Shown here: positions 1 to 11,238 of the stretch, one piece after another
How the letters are laid out: each line of letters begins with the position of its first letter
Position numbering within the stretch: the stretch's first letter is position 1
IMG/VR virus record: IMGVR_UViG_2802429224_000011
Direction: 5' to 3' (one strand)
Length of the DNA stretch: 11,238 bases
Source: a virus
Taxonomy: Duplodnaviria > Heunggongvirae > Uroviricota > Caudoviricetes
The notes under the pieces: model-generated
The model's input: the letters and a program-made list of their open reading frames with translations, nothing else
The model's database searches: none
What the model was told of the DNA's origin: nothing
Position numbers and translations under genes: made by a program

Positions 1-513
1 ATGTTTAAACTCAATAAATTGACTATTTCTTTATTAGCTATTTTTGCTCTAAGTGGATGTCAATCCAATGCAGATAATTTTGCAGCTGATGTTTATGACA
101 CCACCCAAGTTAACTCTAAACAAGAAACCAAAATGGTAACTATTGTTTCTGTTCTTCCAGCCAAAATTGCAGTTGACAATAAAGCAAATAAAGAAGCTGC
201 ACAAACATTCGGAGCTGTTGTTGGTGCTGTTACTGGCGGAATTATTGGGCATAACACCAAGAATGGTTCGAAGTTAGCAACTGCTGCTGGCGCCGCAGGA
301 GGAACCGCACTTGGTGCAGCTGCTGGTTCATTAGTCAAAGATAAAACAATTGTTGAAGGCGTTTCTCTAACGTACAAAGAAGGTACAAAAGTTTATACAT
401 CGACTCAAGTTGGTAGAGCTTGCCAATTTGCGCCTGGATTAGCAGCCATGATTTCAACTAAAGAAAACGAAACACGTATTCAACCAAATGCAACATGCCC
501 TGATAATAAATAA
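1..513 (+). CDS. Outer-membrane lipoprotein, glycine-zipper (SlyB/Pcp-like) family
   Basis: N-terminal signal peptide with lipobox LSGC (MFKLNKLTISLLAIFALSGCQSN). Central glycine-zipper tract GAVVGAVTGGIIGH...AAGAAGGTALGAAAGS. Overall layout matches SlyB-like 17-kDa lipoproteins as I remember them. AT-rich codon usage, unlike the rest of the window. Confidence 0.75.
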   Translation: MFKLNKLTISLLAIFALSGCQSNADNFAADVYDTTQVNSKQETKMVTIVSVLPAKIAVDNKANKEAAQTFGAVVGAVTGGIIGHNTKNGSKLATAAGAAGGTALGAAAGSLVKDKTIVEGVSLTYKEGTKVYTSTQVGRACQFAPGLAAMISTKENETRIQPNATCPDNK

Positions 514-525
514 TGGTCATTTCAG

Positions 526-1071
526 ATGACACGTCTTGCTTTATATATACTATTAGCTTTGCCGTGCCTAAGCACTTTTTACGTTAACGCGTCTTCTTTA
601 CAGGAACAATTAGCGGCTATTGCGCGAGCCGAAAATGAAGGTAAAGCCGAAGAAAAACGTATTGAAGATGCACGTAAAGAACAAGAGCGCCAACGTGCCA
701 ATGCGGAAAGGATTCGCAAAGAGAAAGCAGCGGCTATGGCAGCAGCAAAAGAAAAACAACGACGAGCGGCTGAGTTTGAGCGTAAAGCTAAGCTCGAAGC
801 AGAGATGGCGGCAGATAAAAAACGCGATCAAGATTATGAAGATCAATTACGCCAACTTGAACTAGAAAACCGAAAACTCGAGCTCGAAGCTAAAAGGGCC
901 AGAGTAAATAGAGCAAACGATTTTCTGGACCAAGAACTCAAGGAGCGAGCTGCACAAACTGACGTTATTCAATCAGAAGCGGACGCTCGGCGTAATATTT
1001 CAACTGGTACCAAAGAATTGTTGCAAAGTGAGGGAAAAGCGAGAGAGAGTAAAGCTGATAGCTGGTGGTAA
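526..1071 (+). CDS. Secreted or periplasmic coiled-coil protein, unknown function
   Basis: 181-aa ORF starting 13 bp after the lipoprotein stop. Sec-type signal peptide (MTRLALYILLALPCLSTFYVNA|SS) followed by highly charged K/E/R/A-rich heptad-like sequence. No strong Shine-Dalgarno seen, so the start is uncertain. AT-rich like the preceding gene. Confidence 0.55.
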   Translation: MTRLALYILLALPCLSTFYVNASSLQEQLAAIARAENEGKAEEKRIEDARKEQERQRANAERIRKEKAAAMAAAKEKQRRAAEFERKAKLEAEMAADKKRDQDYEDQLRQLELENRKLELEAKRARVNRANDFLDQELKERAAQTDVIQSEADARRNISTGTKELLQSEGKARESKADSWW

Positions 1072-1139: not shown

Positions 1140-1718
1140 TTAATTACTGCTAATTGCAATCGCTCTGATTGAGCGTAAATCATCAAGATTATTCAGTTCT
1201 TCCTTCATCTCCCGCTGACGTTGATAAATCTCGTCATTGCGATCGACCTGTGCCTGCGCCATTACTACCGCCAGTTCTTCCAGTTCCGGCATCGACAGTT
1301 TCACCTGTTGATTATTGGCGTCACCCCATGCAAGGGCGGTTCGTGCCGTATCGGATTTCGCCGCCATTACTACCGGATAAAGACGAGCCAGTGAGTCGGA
1401 GCCAGCATTCCAGGTGCGGCCGTTCCATTCGAACGTGAACGGCTGCGCCTCCTGTTCTGTGCGCCACGCCTCGATTTCCATCTTTTTGGCATCTTTTGCC
1501 TCTGCGATAAGTTCGGGCGTGACGGTGAACGGGGCAATTTCACCCCATTTGCCGCTCTGTAACTCTTCCCAGATGCGCTGGCCTGTCGGTGCGGTATCAT
1601 CCTGCATGGCGGTATACAGGACGAATTCCGTTTCACCTTCAAATAACACCTCGCAGTCAACCGCACCATTTTCAAGATAATGCGCGTTTCTGATGCCTTT
1701 TACCGCTCTGATTTTCAT
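1140..1718 (-). CDS. Putative tail fibre chaperone/assembly protein (DUF4376-like), partner of the upstream Stf-type fibre
   Basis: 192-aa ORF starting 13 nt after the tail fibre stop with RBS GGGGAA 7 nt upstream of ATG. Position immediately downstream of a tail fibre is typical for fibre chaperones. Lacks the classical Tfa C-terminal ...W-P motif, so the functional call rests on position and weak resemblance. Confidence 0.55.
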   Translation of the reverse strand: MKIRAVKGIRNAHYLENGAVDCEVLFEGETEFVLYTAMQDDTAPTGQRIWEELQSGKWGEIAPFTVTPELIAEAKDAKKMEIEAWRTEQEAQPFTFEWNGRTWNAGSDSLARLYPVVMAAKSDTARTALAWGDANNQQVKLSMPELEELAVVMAQAQVDRNDEIYQRQREMKEELNNLDDLRSIRAIAISSN

Positions 1719-1731
1719 GTTTTATTCCCCG

Positions 1732-4700
1732 TTACTCGATGCGCACAAACAGGCATGTTAAAGCCCCATTGGTAGCCACGCCGCTGTAACCGGACAGCGC
1801 CATATAACGCCCCGGAAAACTGTAGCTGCCTGCACCATAAACTGTAAGTTGTGCTGAATAGGTGTATGAGCCCGTCTCACTGAACATGGATGCGATACGA
1901 ACCGGCCCCAGACGGGACCCCGGCACCACGTCGCCCAGACCAATTTTTATGGACGTATCACCCGTCTCAGTTCCCTGATATGCCGCCAGTATTGGCACAC
2001 CAACCGCCGGATATTTGTAATATGAGCCTGAGCCCGCCATCCTGGACAACAGGTACGCCAGTGAATCTCCGTCGTAGACAACTACCCGCGATGACATGTT
2101 CCAGCTGTTATCGCTGTCGTTGTACCGGTACTGCATATAGTGAATACAGTGTTCACCCTGATAATACTGGTTGTAACACATCAGGGTTTTAAATTTGCGG
2201 ACTGTGTCAGATTCACTGTTGGCGTACGGGGACCACATCACGTCAATAATGCCGTTAAATTGCGTGGTACCGGTAAGCAGTTGTGATGAATCTGTAATAC
2301 TGACCGCATACCGCCCCGGCGTGACTTTCTTCAGCCATTCAACGAAATCAGACAGTCCCTCAAACGCCAGGGCTTCAGTGCTGGCAAATGCCTGACCAAA
2401 TCCATGCATACCGGACAGCGCCAGCCTGCCCGGTGTACGGTCGCGGATATCGCTCTGGGGTTCCATCGTCGCAGCCGCTTTCAGCTCAAGCTCCGTGCGC
2501 ATGGCTTCAGGTGTGTCCAGTGCCAGTAATGCGCGGGCTTTTTCTGACAGCTGCGCCAGTAAAATCCGGCCCTCTTCACTGAAATAAGGCAGTGTGTTTT
2601 CTTCCGGTGTTATCTGGCTGACAGCCGTTAACACGCCATTAAGCGGCTGTTTACCTGCCAGTGCATTAGTGACCGTTGTCGCAAAGTTCGGGTCATTACC
2701 CAGCGCCGCTGCCAGCTCGTTCAGCGTGTCCAGGGCTTCAGGTGATGAGTCAACCAGCGCAGCGAGCAGTTTGCGGACAAACGCCGCATTGGCTATTTCA
2801 TTACCTGCTGCATCATCCGGTGGTGTTGGCGTGGACGGTGTTCCGGTCAGTGCCGGGCTTTTCAGTGGCGCACGGGTTTCAATCAGCGCCCTGAGTGAGG
2901 CCTCATCAACCTTCAGGTTTTCCCAGCCAACCAGATAACCACCATCTGATGACACCGCGCAACGGTTATAATAAATATGACCATTAACACCGTAATAAAT
3001 AATTATCTTATAGGCATTCTCATCATTCGGGCTGGTTTTAGGTTGTGGCCAGATAATTTCAATAACACCGTTTGTCTGTATGCCAGGCACCACCACATTT
3101 GTGTCCGCAAATACGGCATAACGACCGGGTTTTGCTGTTTTTACCCAGCGGAGAAAATCAGTTCCTGATTTAAATTCTTTTCTGTCGCTGCTGGAAAACA
3201 GGCTCCCGAAGCCGAACATACCAGGAATCGCCAGTCGGCCTTCGGTGCGGTCGTAAATATTCTCCTGTGCATCCTTCTGTGCTGCATTGCCAAGTTGTGG
3301 CGTCAGATTCGTCCAGGTGACCGGGGCGGTGATATTATCGCCACGAACGGTCATAAGAATCCGTCCGTCTTTTCCAAAAAACAGAACCAGCTTTGTTGCT
3401 GTCTGGCTGGTTTTGTCGCCCCAGCCATTATCCAGCCAGATAATTTCTGTTATCCCGGTTGTTTCTTCCGTTTGTGTGGAAAAGGTGTAATACCGTCCCG
3501 GATGTACGTTGTGCGCAGTTTTGGCTATGGTCACCATATCGCGGGCAATAATTGTCGTGCCTCCGGGATTCGTCATTCCGTAACCAAATGCACCAGGCAG
3601 CGCAACACGACCTTCCGTGCTGTCGTAAAGGTCTGTCTGTATGTCCCTTACCGCTGCGCTTTTCAGCTCAAGCTCATTACGCATGGCTTCCACTGTGGCC
3701 TGTGCCAGCAGTGACCGGGCTTTTTCTGACAGCGGAGACAGTGAAGCATTCCCGTCCTGATTAAAGCACAGAAGATTATCCGCCCGTTCTTCCAGATTAC
3801 TGATTGCGGTTAACACGTCACTGAGTGGTTGTTTACCCGCCAGCGCGTTCATGATTGTTGTCGCAAACTCCGGGTCATTGCCCAGCGCAGCTGCCAGCTC
3901 ATTCAGCGTGTCCAGGGCTTCCGGGGACGAGTCAACCAGTGCAGCGAGCAGTTTGCGGACAAATGCCGCGTTCGCTGTTTCCAGACCGGCAGCATCGTCC
4001 GGTGGGGTTGGTGTGGTGGGCGTGCCGGTGAATGCCGGGCTGTCCAGCGGCGCTTTTGTTTTCGTCTCGTCCATGACGGTTTTGACGGCCTTCGGTGTGG
4101 CTGCCAGTTCTTCGCTGTCGTTATCCGTATCACTACAGAGTTGCACCAGGCCTTTTTCTGTCGTGGAAGCATTGCTTCCCTTCAACTCATCAACTATCCG
4201 TTGCGCCTCGTCCCTGTGCTGTTTTGCGCCCTGCTCGCTTTTTGCTGCCGCTTCTGCACTGGCCTTTGCCTCGCCGCTCAGCGTTGCGACTTCACCGAGT
4301 TTATCAACAGCCTTATCGACGATTTTGTCTGCGTCCTTAACGGCCTGCTCTGCGCGAGCCGCATCCTGTGTGGCAGATGATGCCAGCTGTGCCACCTGCC
4401 TTTTATCTTCAGCAACGGCCTCGGCGTTCTGCTGTACGTTATCCGCCAGCGTCTCGCAGTCGCTCTTGATTTGTTGCGCATCAGCGACATGTTGCCCGGC
4501 CTGTCGTTCGCTTTCCGCTGCCGCCTCCGCGCTCTGCTGCGCCTGCGCCACCAGTTCTTCGAACCGCTTAACGACATCCGGTTTTAAATCGCCTTCATCG
4601 AGGGCGGTCAGAAAGTCGTTCAGTGTGCCGGGCTTTGAATCGTCGTAAACCGAAATATCACCAACACAATATTCTCTTTCAATACATGACCGAAGATAAA

Positions 4701-4878
4701 CGTCATATCTTCCGGTCTGAGCCTCAAATGCATATTCTCCTGCCGGCCCCGTCAAAACTGTTGCCACCGTTCTCATAACCACTGCGGATGTATTCTGTCG
4801 GGCTTTCAGAATAATATGGTATCCGGACATGGGGAGTCCCGTGCCATCCGTCAGCACCCCCGAAATTAATACAGACAT
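1732..4878 (-). CDS. Side tail fibre protein, lambdoid Stf-type, with duplicated collar repeats and three tip modules
   Basis: N-terminus MSVLISGVLTDGTG...ILKARQNTSAVV...YDDSKPGTLNDFL matches the N-terminal domain of E. coli prophage Stf proteins such as StfR. A/E/Q-rich helical shaft. Two copies of the fibre collar motif KGLVQL...ATPKAVK / APLxSPAxTGTP(T/S)TPTPP...AALVDSSPEALDTLNELAAALGNDP(E/N)FATT. RBS AGGAA 6 nt upstream of ATG, 24 nt after the D stop. Confidence 0.9.
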   Translation of the reverse strand: MSVLISGVLTDGTGLPMSGYHIILKARQNTSAVVMRTVATVLTGPAGEYAFEAQTGRYDVYLRSCIEREYCVGDISVYDDSKPGTLNDFLTALDEGDLKPDVVKRFEELVAQAQQSAEAAAESERQAGQHVADAQQIKSDCETLADNVQQNAEAVAEDKRQVAQLASSATQDAARAEQAVKDADKIVDKAVDKLGEVATLSGEAKASAEAAAKSEQGAKQHRDEAQRIVDELKGSNASTTEKGLVQLCSDTDNDSEELAATPKAVKTVMDETKTKAPLDSPAFTGTPTTPTPPDDAAGLETANAAFVRKLLAALVDSSPEALDTLNELAAALGNDPEFATTIMNALAGKQPLSDVLTAISNLEERADNLLCFNQDGNASLSPLSEKARSLLAQATVEAMRNELELKSAAVRDIQTDLYDSTEGRVALPGAFGYGMTNPGGTTIIARDMVTIAKTAHNVHPGRYYTFSTQTEETTGITEIIWLDNGWGDKTSQTATKLVLFFGKDGRILMTVRGDNITAPVTWTNLTPQLGNAAQKDAQENIYDRTEGRLAIPGMFGFGSLFSSSDRKEFKSGTDFLRWVKTAKPGRYAVFADTNVVVPGIQTNGVIEIIWPQPKTSPNDENAYKIIIYYGVNGHIYYNRCAVSSDGGYLVGWENLKVDEASLRALIETRAPLKSPALTGTPSTPTPPDDAAGNEIANAAFVRKLLAALVDSSPEALDTLNELAAALGNDPNFATTVTNALAGKQPLNGVLTAVSQITPEENTLPYFSEEGRILLAQLSEKARALLALDTPEAMRTELELKAAATMEPQSDIRDRTPGRLALSGMHGFGQAFASTEALAFEGLSDFVEWLKKVTPGRYAVSITDSSQLLTGTTQFNGIIDVMWSPYANSESDTVRKFKTLMCYNQYYQGEHCIHYMQYRYNDSDNSWNMSSRVVVYDGDSLAYLLSRMAGSGSYYKYPAVGVPILAAYQGTETGDTSIKIGLGDVVPGSRLGPVRIASMFSETGSYTYSAQLTVYGAGSYSFPGRYMALSGYSGVATNGALTCLFVRIE
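2677..2871. repeat. Intragenic direct repeat copy 2 (collar-encoding) within the tail fibre gene
   Basis: About 195 bp, roughly 85-90% identical to 3859-4053 (offset 1182 bp), with perfect runs such as gcagcgagcagtttgcggacaaa and ttcagcgtgtccagggcttc. Also visible as near-identical antisense ORF translations (GSLPSAAASSFSVSRASGDESTSAASSLRTNAA in ORFs 2594..2938 and 3851..4648). Weaker similarity continues to about 2400. Confidence 0.85.
3859..4053. repeat. Intragenic direct repeat copy 1 (collar-encoding) within the tail fibre gene
   Basis: Partner of 2677-2871. Weaker similarity (about 75-80%) continues to about 3590, covering the ELELK...DRTxGR(L/V)A motif. Confidence 0.85.
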
Positions 4879-6665: not shown

Positions 6666-8318
6666 TCACCCCCAGAATGCATCACCATCAGTCATGCGGG
6701 AACGCTGACCAAAATTAATATCTCCCAGATTTTTCGTTACCCTGTCTGCCAGTTGTCCGGCATCCTCGCCGGGCTTCTGAGTGATGTTAAATTCCGCCCG
6801 TATCTGATACGTGGGTTTTACTTCCACCTGGCTGACACTGCCGGGGGTATACTGAAGAGCCGAGAGAGGATCCGAATTACCCTGCCCCTGAACTGCTGCA
6901 GGTAGTCCGTCAATATAGGTGCGGGATTTCTCTTTTATCGCCTTAAAATCAGGTTCTTCTTTCGGCCCCAGCAGAGGGTCGAGAAATGCATCAAACTTTT
7001 TATCGTCATGATTCCAGGGGAGATAACCGCGGGTGTCTTTATAGGCCTGTACAACCTGTTTTGTCAGGTCAGGATTTTGCCTGAGCAGTTCATCAAACCA
7101 TTCACCCTGACCGTTTTTCTGCGCCACTGCTCTCGCCAGCTCCGGCGACCCCATTTTTGCCAGATACTCCAGCACTTCCCGTCGGTCCTCTCGCGGATCA
7201 TCCGCCAGCCCCCACTCAATGGCTTTTTGTGTAATTCCGGCAAGAACTTTTCCAAATTTCCACATCCAGGCAGCCATGTCGATCAGCGCCGGCAGGGCAT
7301 CATCACGAATAAATGCCCGGATTTTTTCCAGCCCACCATTCTTAAACCAGGCCGCAAGGTCATCCGTCACCTGTTGAATATGTGGGGCAAGTTCATTACC
7401 CAGCTGTCCGCTGATTTCATCAATGGAAGAACTCAGAACATTACGGAGATTTGACAGTGCCACATGTCCCTGAACTGCGCCATCAGCCCCTGCCTTTGTC
7501 ACCAGGTTATAGCGTTTCTGCTCACTGATAAGCTCCCGATAAGTTTTCCCTGACAGACGCATCCAGGTCAGAATTTTATTGGCCTCACCACCGAACAACG
7601 CATCTGCCATCCCCGCCGCCTGCTGCTCATTCTCAACCTGCAGTAAGCGATCAAACAAAAATTCGACCTGCTCCTGGTTGTTTTTTCCGGCCATTACGCC
7701 CGCTTTCAGCCCCAGTTTACCGAATACCTCCTGAATGGCTCCTTTGTCCGTGGCACCATTATCATCGTCAAAAACCTTGTTCCGGTATTCCTCAAACAGA
7801 TCACCGATGTTTTCACCGTTTAACCCCATCTGACGGCCCAGTGAATCCCACGCCGCATAGGTTTCATAGTCCACCCCGTAGCTCCGCGCTATCCCTGCAC
7901 GCTCTGCTGTTTCCGAATTCCGGTTCAGTACCGCACTTGCACCTGCTGCCAGCGTAAGCCCGGAACCAACCGAAAGCCCCAGCCCGGTCTTAAGAACGGT
8001 CCCGGCCCACCCTTTCCAGCGAGCCAGACGTTCCGCGCGCGCCAGCTTACGGTTGAATTTGTCCTGCTCTCCGGTGGCATCATGAATTTTTTTACCCAGC
8101 TTTTCATACTGCTTTCGCAGATCAGTAATATTCTGTCCAGCCAGAACGCCAGCCTGAATTTTTCGTTTCAGTACGTCCTGCTGGCGTGTCAGACGAGCCA
8201 CTTCCTGTGTTGCCCCTGATAATCCGTGCTTCAACCCATCAACCGATTTTTTCCACGACGGATCTATCGTGCCTCCGATCCGGATATTCGCTTTAAGGTT
8301 ATCGCCCACCGTTGCCAT
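6666..8318 (-). CDS. Tail tape measure protein (gpT-like), short variant
   Basis: 550-aa protein in the position between E/E' and U. Internal Gly-rich hydrophobic segment (GWAGTVLKTGLGLSVGSGLTLAAGASAVL) typical of tape measure proteins. RBS GAGGAA 8 nt upstream of ATG. Confidence 0.82.
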   Translation of the reverse strand: MATVGDNLKANIRIGGTIDPSWKKSVDGLKHGLSGATQEVARLTRQQDVLKRKIQAGVLAGQNITDLRKQYEKLGKKIHDATGEQDKFNRKLARAERLARWKGWAGTVLKTGLGLSVGSGLTLAAGASAVLNRNSETAERAGIARSYGVDYETYAAWDSLGRQMGLNGENIGDLFEEYRNKVFDDDNGATDKGAIQEVFGKLGLKAGVMAGKNNQEQVEFLFDRLLQVENEQQAAGMADALFGGEANKILTWMRLSGKTYRELISEQKRYNLVTKAGADGAVQGHVALSNLRNVLSSSIDEISGQLGNELAPHIQQVTDDLAAWFKNGGLEKIRAFIRDDALPALIDMAAWMWKFGKVLAGITQKAIEWGLADDPREDRREVLEYLAKMGSPELARAVAQKNGQGEWFDELLRQNPDLTKQVVQAYKDTRGYLPWNHDDKKFDAFLDPLLGPKEEPDFKAIKEKSRTYIDGLPAAVQGQGNSDPLSALQYTPGSVSQVEVKPTYQIRAEFNITQKPGEDAGQLADRVTKNLGDINFGQRSRMTDGDAFWG

Positions 8319-8738
8319 AACATCGCTTCCTCTCTTCCGACTCCGCCAGCATCATTGCCACAAAATCCGTATACGGCAGCGCCATCACATCTCCGGGAGA
8401 CCACCCGAACCAGGCACCGGCACGCCGTATCGCTGTCAGGATGCTTTCTTCTTCCGCCGGACCGGCGGCAGCAAAAAAACATTAAACTGACGCTCCAGGG
8501 CCAGGTAATCACACGCTTCCATGTTCATCATGTCTGCCGCGTCCATCCCACACAGACCGGCAATCATATCCAGATCAGCCTCTGCTTCCGGTTTGTTACT
8601 CCGGCGATGCAACAGACGATCGCGGACAGTGGGCGCACGCATAGTGACGTGCGTGATCGTCTGTCCTGATGCGGTGACATACGGCACGGATAACACAATT
8701 TCCACGCTGCTGGCAGGAACACTGTTTTTTTCCGACAT
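8299..8738 (-). CDS. Predicted E+E' fusion product made by programmed -1 frameshift
   Basis: A -1 slip at TTTTTTG (minus strand, 8472-8478) opens a frame reading AAAGPAEEESILTAIRRAGAWFGWSPGDVMALPYTDFVAMMLAESEERKRCYGNGGR and stopping at TAA 8299-8301, just inside the T start. This mirrors the known P2 E/E' arrangement. Coordinates derived by hand translation. Confidence 0.6.
8436..8738 (-). CDS. P2 gpE-like tail assembly chaperone
   Basis: Motifs ...TASGQTITHVTMRAPTVRD...LDMIAGLCGMDAADMMNMEACDYLALERQ consistent with the gpE family. Start called at the second ATG (8736-8738, MSEKNSV...) because AGGAG lies 6 nt upstream of it. The ORF track's 8744 start is the alternative. Contains the TTTTTTG slippery site near its 3' end. 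Confidence 0.85.
   Translation of the reverse strand: MSEKNSVPASSVEIVLSVPYVTASGQTITHVTMRAPTVRDRLLHRRSNKPEAEADLDMIAGLCGMDAADMMNMEACDYLALERQFNVFLLPPVRRKKKAS
8472..8478 (-). other. Slippery heptamer TTTTTTG (programmed -1 ribosomal frameshift site)
   Basis: mRNA reads AAT GTT TTT TTG CTG CCG in the E frame. T-TTT-TTG is the heptamer used for the E/E' frameshift in P2-like phages. Confidence 0.6.
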
Positions 8739-8761
8739 AAGCATCTCCTTTAAAAAGAAAA

Positions 8762-8777
8762 GGCGGCCTGAGCCGCC
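8762..8777 (-). terminator. Intrinsic terminator/attenuator-like hairpin between tube and E
   Basis: On the minus strand: GGCGGC-TCAG-GCCGCC followed by UUUUCUUUUUAAA, located between the tube stop (8798-8800) and the E RBS. Confidence 0.5.
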
Positions 8778-8797
8778 TGAATGACAGGATCCCCGGA

Positions 8798-9316
8798 TTA
8801 AACCCGGATGATTTTTTTCAGATCCGCCAGAACATTAACGCCGTTAATACGACGCACAAATTCCTCCGGAATAATGCAGATGGTTTCCACACCGTCAACA
8901 GCCTGACGGTAATAACTCAGTGACATTTCCACCGTCACCGAAGCCTCTGCCTGTGACGTTGCGGGACGCGCATCCGGCGTGATACTGGTGATCATCCCCT
9001 GCAGAGTTTCCACCTGCCCGCTGGTCGCATTCCCCACCTGGTAAGCCTGGCGGACAACAATCTCCGGCGAATAAAGCCCGGCCTGTAATCCCAGCAGCGT
9101 AAGCATGGCAACATCATAACCATAAATCTTAAACGAACAGGTCAGCGCTTCCATGCCGTCATCCACTGCCACCGGTGCATCCATTGCGCCAGTTTTGATA
9201 TCCACTGTCGTGATATTAATGGCAGGTGGCGTGTATTCATGTGCCCCCTGAAGGCGGATCCCGCCAGGAAGAAATAACGCCCATGCGCGCAACAGTTTTT
9301 TTTCACCCGTAATCAT
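8798..9316 (-). CDS. P2 gpFII-like tail tube protein
   Basis: 172 aa, the same length as P2 FII as I recall it. C-terminal ...NGVNVLADLKKIIRV resembles the FII-family ending (NGVD.LAQHRRNIGL). Start overlaps the sheath stop by ATGA. Position directly after the sheath. Confidence 0.85.
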   Translation of the reverse strand: MITGEKKLLRAWALFLPGGIRLQGAHEYTPPAINITTVDIKTGAMDAPVAVDDGMEALTCSFKIYGYDVAMLTLLGLQAGLYSPEIVVRQAYQVGNATSGQVETLQGMITSITPDARPATSQAEASVTVEMSLSYYRQAVDGVETICIIPEEFVRRINGVNVLADLKKIIRV

Positions 9317-10788
9317 ACCGTCAGTTCCTCCAGCGCCAGTTTATTGTTAATCATTGCCCGCAGTGTCAGGCGCTCCAGTGGTGACTTCGGCCCAAAGTCA
9401 TAATCGATATACAACTGCCCTGCCGCCAGGGTTTCTGCAGTGTTCAGTTCATCGTTCAGCCATGCACTGCCACCGTGGATCGCGCCCAGATTTTTAAGCT
9501 GACGCATATAGGCATTAATGCTGCCAAGAATGTCGTCTGCCACATCCCGATCAAGCGGGCGATCGACATAAGGCAGCATGGCCTCCTGGATGCTGTCCTC
9601 AATCACATCTGCAGTGCGGCGTACCGGCTCAAAACGCCACTGACTGTGGGATGTGCACAGACGGTTACCCCAGTGTTTAAAACCGTCATGGCGAATAATG
9701 GTGGAGATATTTTCCATGTTCAGCAGGTTTGCCGTGCAGTTCTGCTCCCCGAGAATAAACGTATCCACCTGCTCCAGACCGGTGATATTCATCACGTCCT
9801 GGTTTGATTTGGACCACCACCACCCTTTTTCGTAATCAATACGGGCACGCAGCCCGGCAGCACGAGCCGAATATGGACGAAATATAGTTTGCCCGCTGTC
9901 ATCCGTCACTGACACGCGCGGACGCAGCAGCTCCACACGCCCACCAAATGACGCGCGCCGCTGAACCACATCCTGCGGCGTTGCCATTGAAGGCGAGTCA
10001 ATATAGGCCACAGCCCGCAGCTTCACGGCATACGTTTCCAGCGCCTTTGCCACGCCATCATCCTCACTGTACCCCGTGGCAATGAGGATGCGCGGTTGAT
10101 AGCCTGTCACGCCCTTACTTTCTGTCAGCGCCTCCATGGCCTGAATCACCGCCGCACGCTGTTCGGCCTCTTTCGTCTTTGTTTTACTTTCTGCGCGCAC
10201 CACAATCACCAGCGCACCAGTCTGGTCAAAAATATCTCGCAGGGCCGGGTATAATGTTCCGGCTGTGCCCAGTTTCCCTGCCTGAGTAATGGCCCCTGCC
10301 ACCACCACTGGTGTATTGACCGGGAACGCCTCATCTTCTCCGCCGGATAACGTCAGGCTGAACGGCAACACCACTTTATTTTCAGCGTCTCCTGCATTCA
10401 GGGTGCTGACAGCCGCCGTCACAGGCGAATCCCCCAGCGCATTCACCACTTCAGTCACACGGTCCGCCGTGGCGTTAACCTGGCTGTGTTCGTCCGTCCC
10501 CAGTGTTATCGTCAGGGTCGTACCTTTCAGCGAGGCCACTGTCTGCGCGTTTTGTTCTGTGGCAGCCACAGCAACAACCGAAATCTTATTACCGGCCCGA
10601 CCTTCCTGTTTCGCCGTGAAATCCAGCGCCGTTCCCAGCAGCCAGGAGCCGGCTGTGCCGGAAGCGCACACACCACCAGAGGCGTCCGGCGCTGTCCCCA
10701 CCAGGCCAATCACTGCCGTGGAGATGGTCTGCACGGCAACCGTGCCTGTCGTCAGTTCAATGGTTTCAACACCATGTAATCCGGGCAT
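9313..10788 (-). CDS. P2 gpFI-like contractile tail sheath protein, with an extra internal segment
   Basis: N-terminus MPGLHGVETIELTTGTVAVQTISTAVIGLVGTAPDASGG and C-terminus ...ETLAAGQLYIDYDFGPKSPLERLTLRAMINNKL closely mirror P2 FI termini ([34 protein letters not shown]; ...ETLKAGKLYIDYDYTP...LENLTLRQRI). Also ...ILIATGY... and WGNRLCTS motifs. RBS GGGAG upstream. Confidence 0.9.
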   Translation of the reverse strand: MPGLHGVETIELTTGTVAVQTISTAVIGLVGTAPDASGGVCASGTAGSWLLGTALDFTAKQEGRAGNKISVVAVAATEQNAQTVASLKGTTLTITLGTDEHSQVNATADRVTEVVNALGDSPVTAAVSTLNAGDAENKVVLPFSLTLSGGEDEAFPVNTPVVVAGAITQAGKLGTAGTLYPALRDIFDQTGALVIVVRAESKTKTKEAEQRAAVIQAMEALTESKGVTGYQPRILIATGYSEDDGVAKALETYAVKLRAVAYIDSPSMATPQDVVQRRASFGGRVELLRPRVSVTDDSGQTIFRPYSARAAGLRARIDYEKGWWWSKSNQDVMNITGLEQVDTFILGEQNCTANLLNMENISTIIRHDGFKHWGNRLCTSHSQWRFEPVRRTADVIEDSIQEAMLPYVDRPLDRDVADDILGSINAYMRQLKNLGAIHGGSAWLNDELNTAETLAAGQLYIDYDFGPKSPLERLTLRAMINNKLALEELTV

Positions 10789-10801
10789 ACATTTCTCCCA
10801 T

Positions 10802-10823
10802 AAAAAAACCGCCCTCAGGCGGT
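10802..10823 (-). terminator. Intrinsic terminator between the G-like gene and the sheath gene
   Basis: Minus-strand mRNA: ACCGCC-UGAG-GGCGGU followed by UUUUUUU, then GGGAGAAAUGU-AUG (sheath RBS and start). Confidence 0.55.
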
Positions 10824-10842
10824 CAGATGATTAACTTCTTTT

Positions 10843-11238
10843 TCAGGTATTTTGTGGCTGCTCAGGCCAGCTAATATTGTTGTAAGTGGTCTTATCCGTA
10901 ATAGCGCTGAAATCCATCGCCTGCAGCGATTTCGCGTAAATGCGGTACGCTTTGAGCTTTTCCCTGTCTTCGTCGCTGATTAAACCCAGCAGCAGGTCTT
11001 TTTCCCATTCGCTGGTCATGATACTGACCTGTTTTAACAGTGCGTCACGCTCATCTTCCGCTTTAAGTTTGTAGTCGAAAACAAATTCATCATTGCGGTA
11101 GAACCAGTATCCCGACGCCTCAATGCGACGATTAGCGGTAATATCCGGCAACTCAATCACACTTTTATTTTCCGGGCAGATTGAGGTGATGTCTTTTCCA
11201 ACCCAGACCACTTCGCCAGTTTCAACATAAATAACTTT
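10843..11238 (-). CDS. P2 gpG-like tail fibre assembly protein, 5' end lies beyond the window
   Basis: Reading frame stays open to the window edge (..KVIYVETGEVVWVGKDI..). VIELPDITANRRIEASGYWFYRNDEFV resembles P2 G ([27 protein letters not shown]). C-terminal KAYRIY...D.S......ISWPEQP matches the Tfa-family ending (KYRV.L.RVD.S.....WP..P). Confidence 0.8.
   Translation of the reverse strand, partial: KVIYVETGEVVWVGKDITSICPENKSVIELPDITANRRIEASGYWFYRNDEFVFDYKLKAEDERDALLKQVSIMTSEWEKDLLLGLISDEDREKLKAYRIYAKSLQAMDFSAITDKTTYNNISWPEQPQNT

Follow-up and report, generated by a model that had tools for sequence, protein, structure and literature searches.

A conserved -1 reading frame at the tail chaperone locus of a mosaic Escherichia coli prophage and its probable expression by programmed ribosomal frameshifting

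Introduction

In the prophage studied here, a stretch of exactly 117 nt separates the stop codon of the tail assembly chaperone gene E from the start codon of the tape measure gene T. The RefSeq annotation of the 99.8%-identical prophage of E. coli A36 (NZ_CP028739) contains E and leaves this stretch blank. Is it a spacer between two genes, or does it encode the second half of a protein that begins with E? A preliminary description of the DNA had favoured the latter and proposed that a conserved TTTTTTG heptamer causes a programmed -1 frameshift, which generates an E+E' chaperone as in phage P2. All positions given below refer to the window, i.e., the whole stretch of 11,238 nucleotides that was analysed, and every feature at this locus is carried by the minus strand, which the preliminary description had left out. 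With a probability of about 0.9, we infer that the tail assembly chaperone gene gives rise to two proteins, E and the fusion E+E', by programmed -1 ribosomal frameshifting. The arrangement is a known and ordinary phage mechanism, which was previously unannotated at this locus.

Organization of the tail module

The locus belongs to a temperate, myovirus-type prophage of E. coli, which is integrated next to ssrA, and its tail genes are found in the order sheath-tube-E-(E')-T-U-X-D. Two overlapping frames, E (8738..8436) and E' (8472..8299), lie between the tube gene (9316..8798) and T (8318..6666). The tube gene, which is located directly upstream of E, is of the FII type (PF04985, E = 4.4e-24). 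T is flanked by E and gpU and encodes a protein of 550 amino acids, which matches phrog_3654 at 7e-214 and several further tape-measure PHROGs at 1e-9 to 1e-5; RefSeq labels it as 'hypothetical protein' in most genomes and as 'phage tail tape measure protein' in some.

The E protein matches the Pfam family PF10109 (Phage_TAC_7) with 47.2 bits (E = 2.2e-12), which is above the gathering threshold of 25 bits, and the match covers profile positions 2-78 of 79. Its counterpart in the A36 prophage is RefSeq WP_001291421.1, a 'phage tail assembly protein' encoded by 303 nt. The longest E open reading frame (8744..8436) starts with a first ATG at 8744 and would yield 102 amino acids. A Shine-Dalgarno sequence, AAGGAG (8745..8750), which was read directly from the DNA, is spaced 6 nt from a second ATG at 8738 and 0 nt from the ATG at 8744; the E protein probably starts at ATG 8738 and consists of 100 amino acids. 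E ends with a TGA at 8438..8436.

The slip site and the -1 frame

The slippery heptamer T_TTT_TTG is located at 8472..8478 and has the X_XXY_YYZ phase, with the 0-frame codons GTT (8480-8478), TTT (8477-8475) and TTG (8474-8472). It forms part of a run of seven T (8479-8473), and its TTG is the 12th codon counted back from the TGA of E, the distance given in the preliminary description. In the -1 frame, a TAA (8482..8484) precedes the heptamer by two codons and sets the 5' limit of the possible shift region; a -1 frame stop just upstream of the heptamer is likewise present in Trabulsiella. Since the first open position of the -1 frame is 8481 and the 0 frame runs to its stop at 8438, any shift must fall in 8481..8439, and TTTTTTG is the sole slippery site inside this interval.

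The E' extension (8299..8471) comprises 57 sense codons, including the re-read G8472, followed by a TAA at 8301..8299. The 58 open codons noted earlier correspond to these 57 codons plus the stop, and the earlier coordinates, 8299-8478, run from the E' stop through the first base of the heptamer. The ATG of T (8318..8316) is located 17 nt upstream of the E' stop, so that both frames overlap by 20 nt and the -1 frame ends just inside the T start, as had been described. A second overlap is found at the other end of E', where the DNA at 8436..8471 codes in two frames, with the 0-frame E tail LPPVRRKKKAS* lying over the E' start AAAGPAEEESIL. The conserved motif of E' is AWFGWxPxEVMALPxxDF.

Neither the heptamer alone nor the open -1 frame alone is remarkable. 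The genes of the window contain nine in-phase X_XXY_YYZ heptamers in approximately 3,400 codons, a -1 frame of 59 or more codons without a stop is found at 4.7% of in-frame positions, and the gap in the window is free of stops in the +1 frame as well. One further heptamer, A_AAA_AAC at codon 5 of E (8730), was treated as a chance occurrence. The feature at the end of E counts as more than chance because it is conserved in relatives.

Coding selection and conservation in relatives

The pattern of substitutions in the 117-nt gap was analysed among 25 unique relatives. The variable sites fall on -1 frame codon positions 1, 2 and 3 in the proportion 7/8/25 (chi-square p = 8.6e-6). The ratio of synonymous to non-synonymous changes is 66:65 in the -1 frame; the 0 and +1 frames have 21:133 and 17:138, respectively. 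Stop codons interrupt the +1 frame in nine of the 25 relatives and the -1 frame in none. Thus, the gap codes for protein in the -1 frame and is under purifying selection; codon periodicity is seen in this frame only. A -1 frame stop soon after the heptamer, which the preliminary description had named as evidence against recoding, is absent from the window and from all 25 relatives. The +1 frame ORF 8512..8264 (82 amino acids) was considered as an alternative product and rejected due to its stops in 9/25 relatives and its substitution ratio.

Conservation of the heptamer together with the -1 frame extends well beyond the window. All 33 IMG/VR relatives, whose E proteins are 56-100% identical, have TTTTTTG in phase and a -1 ORF of 55-57 codons ending at the T start, and the two-frame arrangement is also present in 74 complete E. 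coli genomes. Heptamer and -1 ORF are kept in Trabulsiella guamensis (L156/L037), whose E is 56% identical, and in the metagenomic locus L154; a scan of a genome collection with a narrower E' alignment found only Trabulsiella. The proposal of a conserved -1 frameshift, which would yield the E+E' chaperone and account for the 117-nt gap, is supported by the computational tests, namely the position between the tube and tape measure genes, the PF10109 membership of E with the slip site placed as in P2 gpE, the closure of the -1 frame ahead of the heptamer, the codon periodicity, and the retention of heptamer and ORF. In one relative (L033), the 0-frame stop is located four codons further upstream and the -1 frame is intact. 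The 0-frame tail past the heptamer (LPP..R.K) is itself conserved in Trabulsiella and in the phages Chris1 and yong2, so that both termination points are maintained. In another locus, L153, the -1 ORF is kept and the slip site reads CAA_AAG; together with the non-canonical sites of Chris1 and yong2 described below, this indicates that a canonical heptamer is not strictly required for the family.

Alternative readings of the locus

The rival reading that survives best is transcriptional slippage, in which RNA polymerase adds one U at the T7 run (8479..8473) in some mRNAs, and normal translation of these mRNAs then yields E+E'. Homopolymer runs are known as polymerase slippage sites (review PMC5009743), and the run consists of seven rather than six T in the window and its close E. 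coli relatives. However, Trabulsiella (L156/L037), L154 and P2 retain the arrangement with a run of six T. RNA polymerase of E. coli usually slips efficiently only on runs of around nine or more, which counts against this reading as well. Furthermore, the T_TTT_TTG phase is held in every case, which is relevant to tRNA re-pairing and irrelevant to a polymerase. The variation between T7 and T6 with a constant phase thus fits ribosomal rather than polymerase slippage, and we regard a transcriptional origin of the fusion as improbable.

A still smaller chance is given to the idea that E' is an independent small gene with its own internal start in the gap, which is translated without fusion to E. 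Gene callers have sometimes called such ORFs where a Met occurs (P0072, P0077 and P0082; 41-45 amino acids), and in the P2 family, E' ORFs frequently have an annotation of their own, 'GpE family phage tail protein'. However, the Met of the called variants represents a Thr/Met polymorphism and no conserved start. E' of the window offers no usable start: the earliest in-frame start codon is GTG 8388, which is located 28 codons in, lies past the most conserved residues IRRAGAWFGWSPGD and lacks a Shine-Dalgarno sequence, and the conservation of amino acids begins at the heptamer.

It is hardly credible that the gap is a non-coding spacer or a regulatory sequence, beside which heptamer and open -1 frame occur by coincidence. 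The chance frequencies given above, the open +1 frame and the blank RefSeq annotation would be compatible with such a spacer, but the reading is effectively refuted by the substitution pattern, namely the periodicity and synonymous excess confined to the -1 frame and the distribution of stop codons, and different genera have kept the E' peptide. The objection that the relatives are too close is countered by the divergent loci L037, L154 and Chris1. Just as implausible is the view that E and E' descend from a single gene which a frameshift mutation has turned into a pseudogene, or which is split only through an error in sequencing the T homopolymer. Such runs are indeed error-prone, and the short Logan contig L152, set aside as a probable assembly error, has a T6 run plus a second frame break. 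However, the two-frame arrangement recurs in the 74 complete E. coli genomes, 33 IMG/VR contigs and other genera, and the 0-frame tail is conserved.

Proposed mechanism of E and E+E' production

Under programmed -1 ribosomal frameshifting, most ribosomes would stay in the 0 frame up to the TGA of E (8438..8436) and produce the chaperone of approximately 100 amino acids, whose expected role is to coat the tape measure protein. In a minority of cases, the ribosome would slip with UUU in the P site and UUG in the A site of U_UUU_UUG (8478..8472), whereby tRNA-Phe and tRNA-Leu would move back by one base and pair again on UUU UUU. The ribosome would then read on from GCU through 57 codons of the -1 frame and terminate at the TAA inside the T start. 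The predicted product is an E+E' fusion of 146 amino acids (148 if counted from ATG 8744) with the junction ...QFNVFL|AAAGPAEEES... and the junction peptide QFNVFLAAAGPAEEESILTAIR; if the P-site tRNA alone slips, QFNVFFAAAG... would be expected instead. No fused E+E' protein is on record in a database of 5.8 billion proteins, and the fused protein has no match among PDB sequences.

The fusion would combine the E chaperone domain with a C-terminal domain of about 57 amino acids, the core of which is AWFGWSPGDVMALPYxDF. By analogy to G/GT of lambda and E/E+E' of P2, E and E+E' are presumably needed in a fixed ratio. By the same analogy, E would bind the tape measure protein, and the E' domain may recruit or position tube subunits. 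Neither E nor E+E' is expected in the finished tail.

Candidate stimulators of frameshifting

The preliminary description had suggested a search for a stimulatory RNA structure downstream of the heptamer; this search yielded none with statistical support. The RNA downstream of the heptamer folds no better than shuffled sequence (z = -0.33 for 52 nt and +1.66 for 92 nt), and an Rfam scan of 8150..8850 returned solely a chance-level match to isrK (E = 0.86). One candidate is a GC hairpin, CCGCCG-GUC-CGGCGG (8454..8468), which is located 3 nt past the heptamer and reaches -11.4 kcal/mol in the first 30 nt. Five to six base pairs of this hairpin are retained in the E. coli and Trabulsiella relatives; it is absent in L154 and yong2, and compensatory changes are lacking. 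The hairpin was thus rejected as an established stimulator and is a possible one at most.

The second candidate is located upstream. A GGAG (8492..8495), which is part of the codons CTG GAG, lies 13 nt upstream of the heptamer and is invariant in eight aligned relatives, at a distance of 11-14 nt from the slip site. A role as a Shine-Dalgarno-like stimulator is speculative, as the conservation of GGAG is inseparable from that of the Leu-Glu codons.

Relationships of the E' peptide and annotation of the locus

Searches of Pfam, NCBIfam and PHROGs with the E' peptide of the window gave nothing significant. For the Pfam family PF06528 (Phage_P2_GpE; gathering threshold 23 bits), no match to the window E' was obtained even at E <= 10, in contrast to the E' of P2, which reaches 78.7 bits; among the E' peptides of relatives, four of 12 match this family weakly (best E = 0.0072). 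A scan of IMG/VR with P2 gpE returned only sequences that are at least 99% identical and of no use for a profile, and the P2 GpE family was therefore collected separately. Alignment of the E' profile with the profile of this family by hhalign gave a probability of 88% (P = 2.8e-6) over 32 columns, in which AWFGWSPGDVMALPY is paired with VIFHWPPSELYPMSL; the score of 35.3 compares to 10.6 +/- 2.4 for 100 column shuffles, whose maximum was 19.9. As E' matches neither PF06528 nor an NCBIfam model, its homology to the E' of P2 rests on this profile-profile comparison and the weak matches of the relatives, which are suggestive of common descent rather than of membership in the family. The similarity to gpE' sequences that had been expected in the -1 frame is accordingly found in part: PF06528 gives no match, but the -1 ORFs of Chris1 and yong2 are homologous, and the P2 GpE profile can be aligned.

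The position of E' outside PF06528 and the absence of an NCBIfam model are part of the reason why it is annotated neither by RefSeq/PGAP nor by phage depositors. If the fusion is produced as proposed, an essential tail assembly protein has its second half encoded in the 117-nt 'gap', both in the 74 complete E. coli genomes and in the records of related phages. A ribosomal-slippage CDS together with an HMM for this branch of E' would close the annotation gap and help automated frameshift finders.

Comparison with known tail chaperone systems

Among the closest known parallels is P2, which uses TTTTTTG for E/E+E' according to a statement in PMC3091744 that cites Christie 2002 and Xu 2004. In the P2 sequence (GenBank AF063097), the heptamer has the same phase as in the window, the codons being GGT TTT TTG in P2 and GTT TTT TTG here. 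P2 gpE matches PF10109 with 47.8 bits and, like the window E, over positions 2-78; both matches end on the Leu of the heptamer TTG, which places the slip site at profile position 78 in both proteins. Both systems furthermore share the -1 direction of the shift, 57 residues after the slip, an E' stop that overlaps the T start and a locus between the FII tube gene and T. They differ in the 0-frame tail past the slip (11 codons here and six in P2), the T run (seven and six) and the length of the tape measure protein (550 and 815 amino acids). The window E is approximately 30% identical to P2 gpE, a pairwise similarity that is not significant (E = 0.29).

The P2-type tail order FI-FII-E-E'-T-U-D is present here except that gene X is inserted between U and D. 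P2-type head and packaging genes are not: upstream, the A36 prophage carries gpFI DNA-packaging and head-tail joining genes of the lambda type. At the DNA level, the E region matched none of 50,697 phage records, P2 included, and DNA matches of the tail module are limited to Chris1, yong2 and vB_EcoM fragments with 66-71% identity. The P2-type assembly pathway claimed in the preliminary description thus holds for the gene order of the tail module, which is P2/R-pyocin-like, but not for the head and packaging genes or for DNA similarity. The prophage is a mosaic with lambda-type head genes and a P2/R-pyocin-type tail and not a P2 relative overall. The tail-chaperone frameshift would thereby extend to a mosaic prophage lineage, while knowledge of the mechanism itself is unchanged.

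In lambda, gpG and gpGT are likewise two products with a common N-terminus, which arise because a low level of -1 slippage occurs close to the end of a gene upstream of the tape measure gene. Lambda gpG/gpGT and the conserved tail-chaperone frameshift of tailed phages were reportedly described by Levin in 1993 and by Xu, Hendrix and Duda in 2004, 2013 and 2014. In the proposed division of roles, the short form coats the tape measure protein, and the long form connects it to the tube or major tail protein (PMC5009743). Sequence similarity between lambda G/T and the window proteins is undetectable, and lambda differs in its slip site (G_GGA_AAG), its chaperone family and its non-contractile tail.

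The closest sequenced phages are Citrobacter phage Chris1 and Hafnia phage yong2, whose sheath, tube and E genes have 66-71% DNA identity and whose E proteins are 36-43% identical to that of the window. Both encode a homologous E' peptide in the -1 frame, which ends at the T start, and the frameshift is unannotated in their records, too. Their slip site, GTT_TTT_ATG (T_TTT_A), is non-canonical and leaves P-site slippage on U_UUU as the only option. The Mu/BcepMu-type gp41-like chaperones, for example those of Escherichia phage PhiKM and Klebsiella phage KP12, share the N-terminal domain PF10109 with the window E, and their E'-like peptide ARWFRFQPGEIDAL is related to the window E'. Unlike in the window, this extension is encoded in the +1 (= -2) frame, which agrees with the -2 shift that Xu et al. 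proposed for Mu, as cited in a passage of PMC2628397.

These comparisons allow a broader proposal, which we consider conceivable but rather doubtful. The E' of the window (core RxGAWFGWxPxEVMALPYxDF) might represent a distinct branch of tail-chaperone extensions outside the current Pfam and NCBIfam models, within a homologous family in which one recoding signal has repeatedly given way to another: the window has T_TTT_TTG, Chris1 and yong2 have T_TTT_A, L153 has A_AAG, and the BcepMu-like phages show a -2/+1 shift. Slippage in the E. coli and Trabulsiella branch may be boosted by the upstream Shine-Dalgarno-like GGAG (11-14 nt) and the GC hairpin 3 nt downstream, in contrast to P2, for which no stimulator was reported. 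If this holds true, the E' family would provide a compact natural series on the evolution of frameshift signals in which the protein product is kept.

Organization of the E/E' locus

All elements of the proposed frameshift lie on the minus strand, which the preliminary description did not specify and which is the coding strand for the tail genes in this part of the window. The genes for the tail sheath (10788..9313, PF04984/PF17482) and the tail tube (9316..8798, PF04985) are followed by E (8744/8738..8436, 100-102 aa), whose product matches PF10109, 'Phage tail assembly chaperone proteins E, 41 or 14' (E = 2.2e-12, 47.2 bits), by a 117-nt gap without an annotated gene and by a 550-aa ORF (8318..6666) with matches to tape measure PHROGs. 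Genes for gpU (PF06995), tail protein X (PF05489) and a gpD-like hub protein are located downstream of the tape measure ORF. E likely starts at ATG 8738 (100 aa) and not at ATG 8744 of the longest ORF, since the AAGGAG at 8750..8745 leaves no spacer before 8744 but one of 6 nt before 8738, which is also the start used by RefSeq (WP_001291421.1, 100 aa).

The 3' end of E reads TTT AAT GTT TTT TTG CTG CCG CCG GTC CGG CGG AAG AAG AAA GCA TCC TGA and contains the slippery heptamer TTTTTTG (8478..8472) in X_XXY_YYZ phase and, as initially described, 12 codons before the E stop; the run of T at this site is seven long (8479..8473). A one-base backward slip leads into the frame GCT GCC GCC GGT..., which comprises 57 codons, or the 58 reported previously if the stop is counted, and ends just inside the tape measure gene with the TAA at 8301..8299, 17 nt past its ATG. 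Another -1 frame stop (TAA 8484..8482) is located two codons upstream of the heptamer, so that the frames can only be joined by a shift within 8481..8439, where the heptamer is the sole slippery site. An additional in-phase heptamer, A_AAA_AAC at 8730..8724 (minus strand; E codon 5, or codon 3 counted from ATG 8738), was regarded as a chance occurrence, since no conserved alternative frame follows it.

A strong intrinsic-terminator-like hairpin is found between the tube gene and E (8778..8752, minus strand; AGGCGGCTCAGGCCGCCT then TTTCTTTTT), with a similar one at the equivalent place in Citrobacter phage Chris1. It could attenuate transcription, thereby yielding sheath and tube in excess of chaperone and tape measure protein. 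A second strong hairpin of this kind lies in the interval that separates the sheath gene from the tail fibre assembly gene (10824..10798, minus strand; GACCGCCTGAGGGCGGTT then TTTTTT).

Coding capacity of the gap

Taken alone, the heptamer and the open -1 frame are no more than chance: the genes of the window contain nine in-phase X_XXY_YYZ heptamers, the -1 frame is open for at least 59 codons at 4.7% of in-frame positions, and the +1 frame of the window is likewise open across the gap (ORF 8512..8264, minus strand, 82 aa, MITWPWSV...). At the level of sequence comparison, the evidence from relatives is decisive. Scanning IMG/VR with the E protein yielded 33 relatives with E proteins 56-100% identical, and in all 33 TTTTTTG is in phase, with a -1 ORF of 55-57 codons that ends at the tape measure start. 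Across the 25 unique sequences, the variable sites in the 117-nt gap fall on -1 codon positions 1, 2 and 3 in numbers of 7, 8 and 25 (chi-square p = 8.6e-6). Codon changes in the gap, counted against the window sequence as reference, gave synonymous to non-synonymous numbers of 66:65 (-1 frame), 21:133 (0 frame) and 17:138 (+1 frame). Stops within the gap are present in none of the 25 unique relatives in the -1 frame, in all of them in the 0 frame and in 9/25 in the +1 frame; the latter, together with mostly non-synonymous changes, marks the 82-aa +1 ORF as spurious. In the IMG/VR relative L033, the 0-frame stop is shifted four codons upstream and the -1 frame is untouched. Codon periodicity, the synonymous excess and the lack of -1 stops show that the gap, whose size had been given correctly, is protein-coding in the -1 frame.

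Trabulsiella guamensis (GCT TTT TTG, T6 run) and the metagenomic locus L154 (AAT TTT TTG) have the same heptamer and arrangement, which upholds the original proposal of a conserved frameshift at TTTTTTG. In the IMG/VR locus L005, the tape measure ORF is apparently interrupted (about 1927..2045), with no further long ORF beginning until 2045; the Logan contig L152, whose T run is six long, shows a further frame break inside E, which is probably an assembly error.

Proposed mechanism of E+E' synthesis

The arrangement is best explained by a tandem -1 slip on U_UUU_UUG, in which tRNA-Phe and tRNA-Leu move back together and E+E' (146 aa) would be made as a minority product beside the 100-aa E. If the pair works like lambda G/GT and P2 E/E+E', coating of the tape measure protein would fall to E and contact with the tube protein to E'. 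Transcriptional slippage could also be considered as the source of E+E', but is disfavoured, since relatives with only six T still hold phase. Independent initiation of E' is excluded: the first start codon in the -1 frame is GTG 8388, which lies downstream of the best conserved residues of E', and conservation runs on from the heptamer. A non-coding gap or a chance arrangement, although compatible with the heptamer and open frame alone, is excluded by the codon periodicity, and a pseudogene or sequencing error by the conservation of both termination points. The observation is real and was interpreted correctly in the preliminary description.

A convincing stimulatory RNA structure, for which a search downstream of the heptamer had been proposed, did not emerge: folding of this region was no better than that of shuffled sequence, and an Rfam scan of the region returned nothing. 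A 6-bp GC hairpin (CCGCCG-GUC-CGGCGG, 8468..8454, minus strand, -11.4 kcal/mol) begins 3 nt past the heptamer, which falls short of the usual heptamer-to-structure spacing of 5-9 nt. It sits within the doubly coding stretch and is retained as 5-6 bp in E. coli and Trabulsiella relatives, but is absent from L154 and Hafnia phage yong2, and no compensatory changes were found among the relatives compared. A GGAG 11-14 nt upstream of the heptamer is invariant in eight aligned relatives and also forms a conserved Leu-Glu codon pair. Both hairpin and GGAG are unproven candidate stimulators. For the P2 slip site, PMC3091744 reports no downstream structure.

Prophage context and annotation

A prophage located beside ssrA in E. 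coli A36 matches the window at 99.8% identity, and the E region is present in 74/5,426 complete E. coli genomes. RefSeq annotates E alone ('phage tail assembly protein') and shows nothing in the gap, and no fused E+E' protein of this lineage occurs in a database of 5.8 billion proteins. Most RefSeq genomes label the tape measure gene 'hypothetical protein'; its 550-aa product (8318..6666) has no Pfam or NCBIfam match, and its best PHROG is phrog_3654 (7e-214, 'unknown function'), tape measure families being matched only more weakly.

Downstream of gpD, the window encodes a second tail fibre of 1048 aa (854 aa in E. coli A36) with a prophage tail fibre N-terminal domain (1732..4878, minus strand) and a DUF4376 protein (1140..1718, minus strand), which come on top of the fibre and assembly genes that precede the sheath gene (10843..11211, minus strand). 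Beyond the tail fibre module are genes for a glycine-zipper/TraT-like protein (1..513, plus strand; PF05433 3e-6, PF05818 2.6e-5) and a DUF5384 protein (526..1071, plus strand; 2e-42). Both are missing from the otherwise 99.8% identical region of E. coli A36, where ssrA directly succeeds DUF4376, and may be prophage cargo (moron).

Slip sites of wider relatives and comparison with P2

When 1.84 billion representative proteins were searched exhaustively with HMMER, the E' peptide matched only a handful of short ORFs, which are gene calls made where a Met happens to be present. In the closest sequenced phages, Chris1 and yong2, the -1 frame at this place codes for a homologous E' peptide. Unlike the window, they have the non-canonical slip site GTT_TTT_ATG (T_TTT_A; 4265..4273 in Chris1 locus L002), which permits P-site slippage only. 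The frameshift is unannotated in both records, and that of yong2 has a 39-aa 'hypothetical protein' in the gap. The metagenomic locus L153 (2462..2480) has the same gene order and CTG_CAA_AAG where the -1 frame opens, so that here tRNA-Lys likely slips on A_AAG instead of a T-rich heptamer. In the BcepMu-like Escherichia phage PhiKM and Klebsiella phage KP12, a related peptide (ARWFRFQPGEIDAL) is found in the +1/-2 frame, with the E'-like peptide LLARWFRFQPGEIDALDTDDLEMWLEQAEEQ at about 1750..1960 of loci L069 and L070 shifted in this way against the PF10109 gene. The frame relation fits a Mu-type -2 shift; a slip site was not identified. PMC2628397 quotes Xu et al. as having proposed such a shift for Mu.

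The P2 record AF063097 annotates an E+E' CDS with a -1 shift at GGT TTT TTG. P2 gpE and the E protein of the window both match PF10109 profile positions 2-78, and both matches end at the Leu of the heptamer's TTG, which makes the two slip sites positionally homologous; pairwise, the proteins share 30% identity, which is not significant (E = 0.29). The similarity of the -1 frame to gpE' anticipated at the outset is suggested at the profile level only. The P2 E' segment matches PF06528 at 2e-22; the E' of the window has no PF06528 or NCBIfam match, and the E' of 4/12 relatives gave sub-threshold PF06528 matches. Profile-profile comparison of 12 E' sequences of the window's family with 49 P2-family GpE proteins resulted in an alignment with a probability of 88% (P = 2.8e-6, score 35.3; 100 column-shuffled controls: 10.6 +/- 2.4, maximum 19.9), which pairs AWFGWSPGDVMALPY with VIFHWPPSELYPMSL. 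The E' of the window can therefore be read as distantly homologous to P2 GpE, yet not as a member of PF06528. The tape measure protein (550 aa) is much shorter than P2 gpT (815 aa), and in the A36 prophage a contractile tail of the P2/R-pyocin type goes together with lambda-type genes for head and packaging (gpFI, head-tail joining). The P2-type assembly inferred earlier is supported by the frameshift for the tail assembly step, but not for the phage as a whole. Frameshifting of this kind is textbook knowledge and had simply gone unannotated in this lineage.
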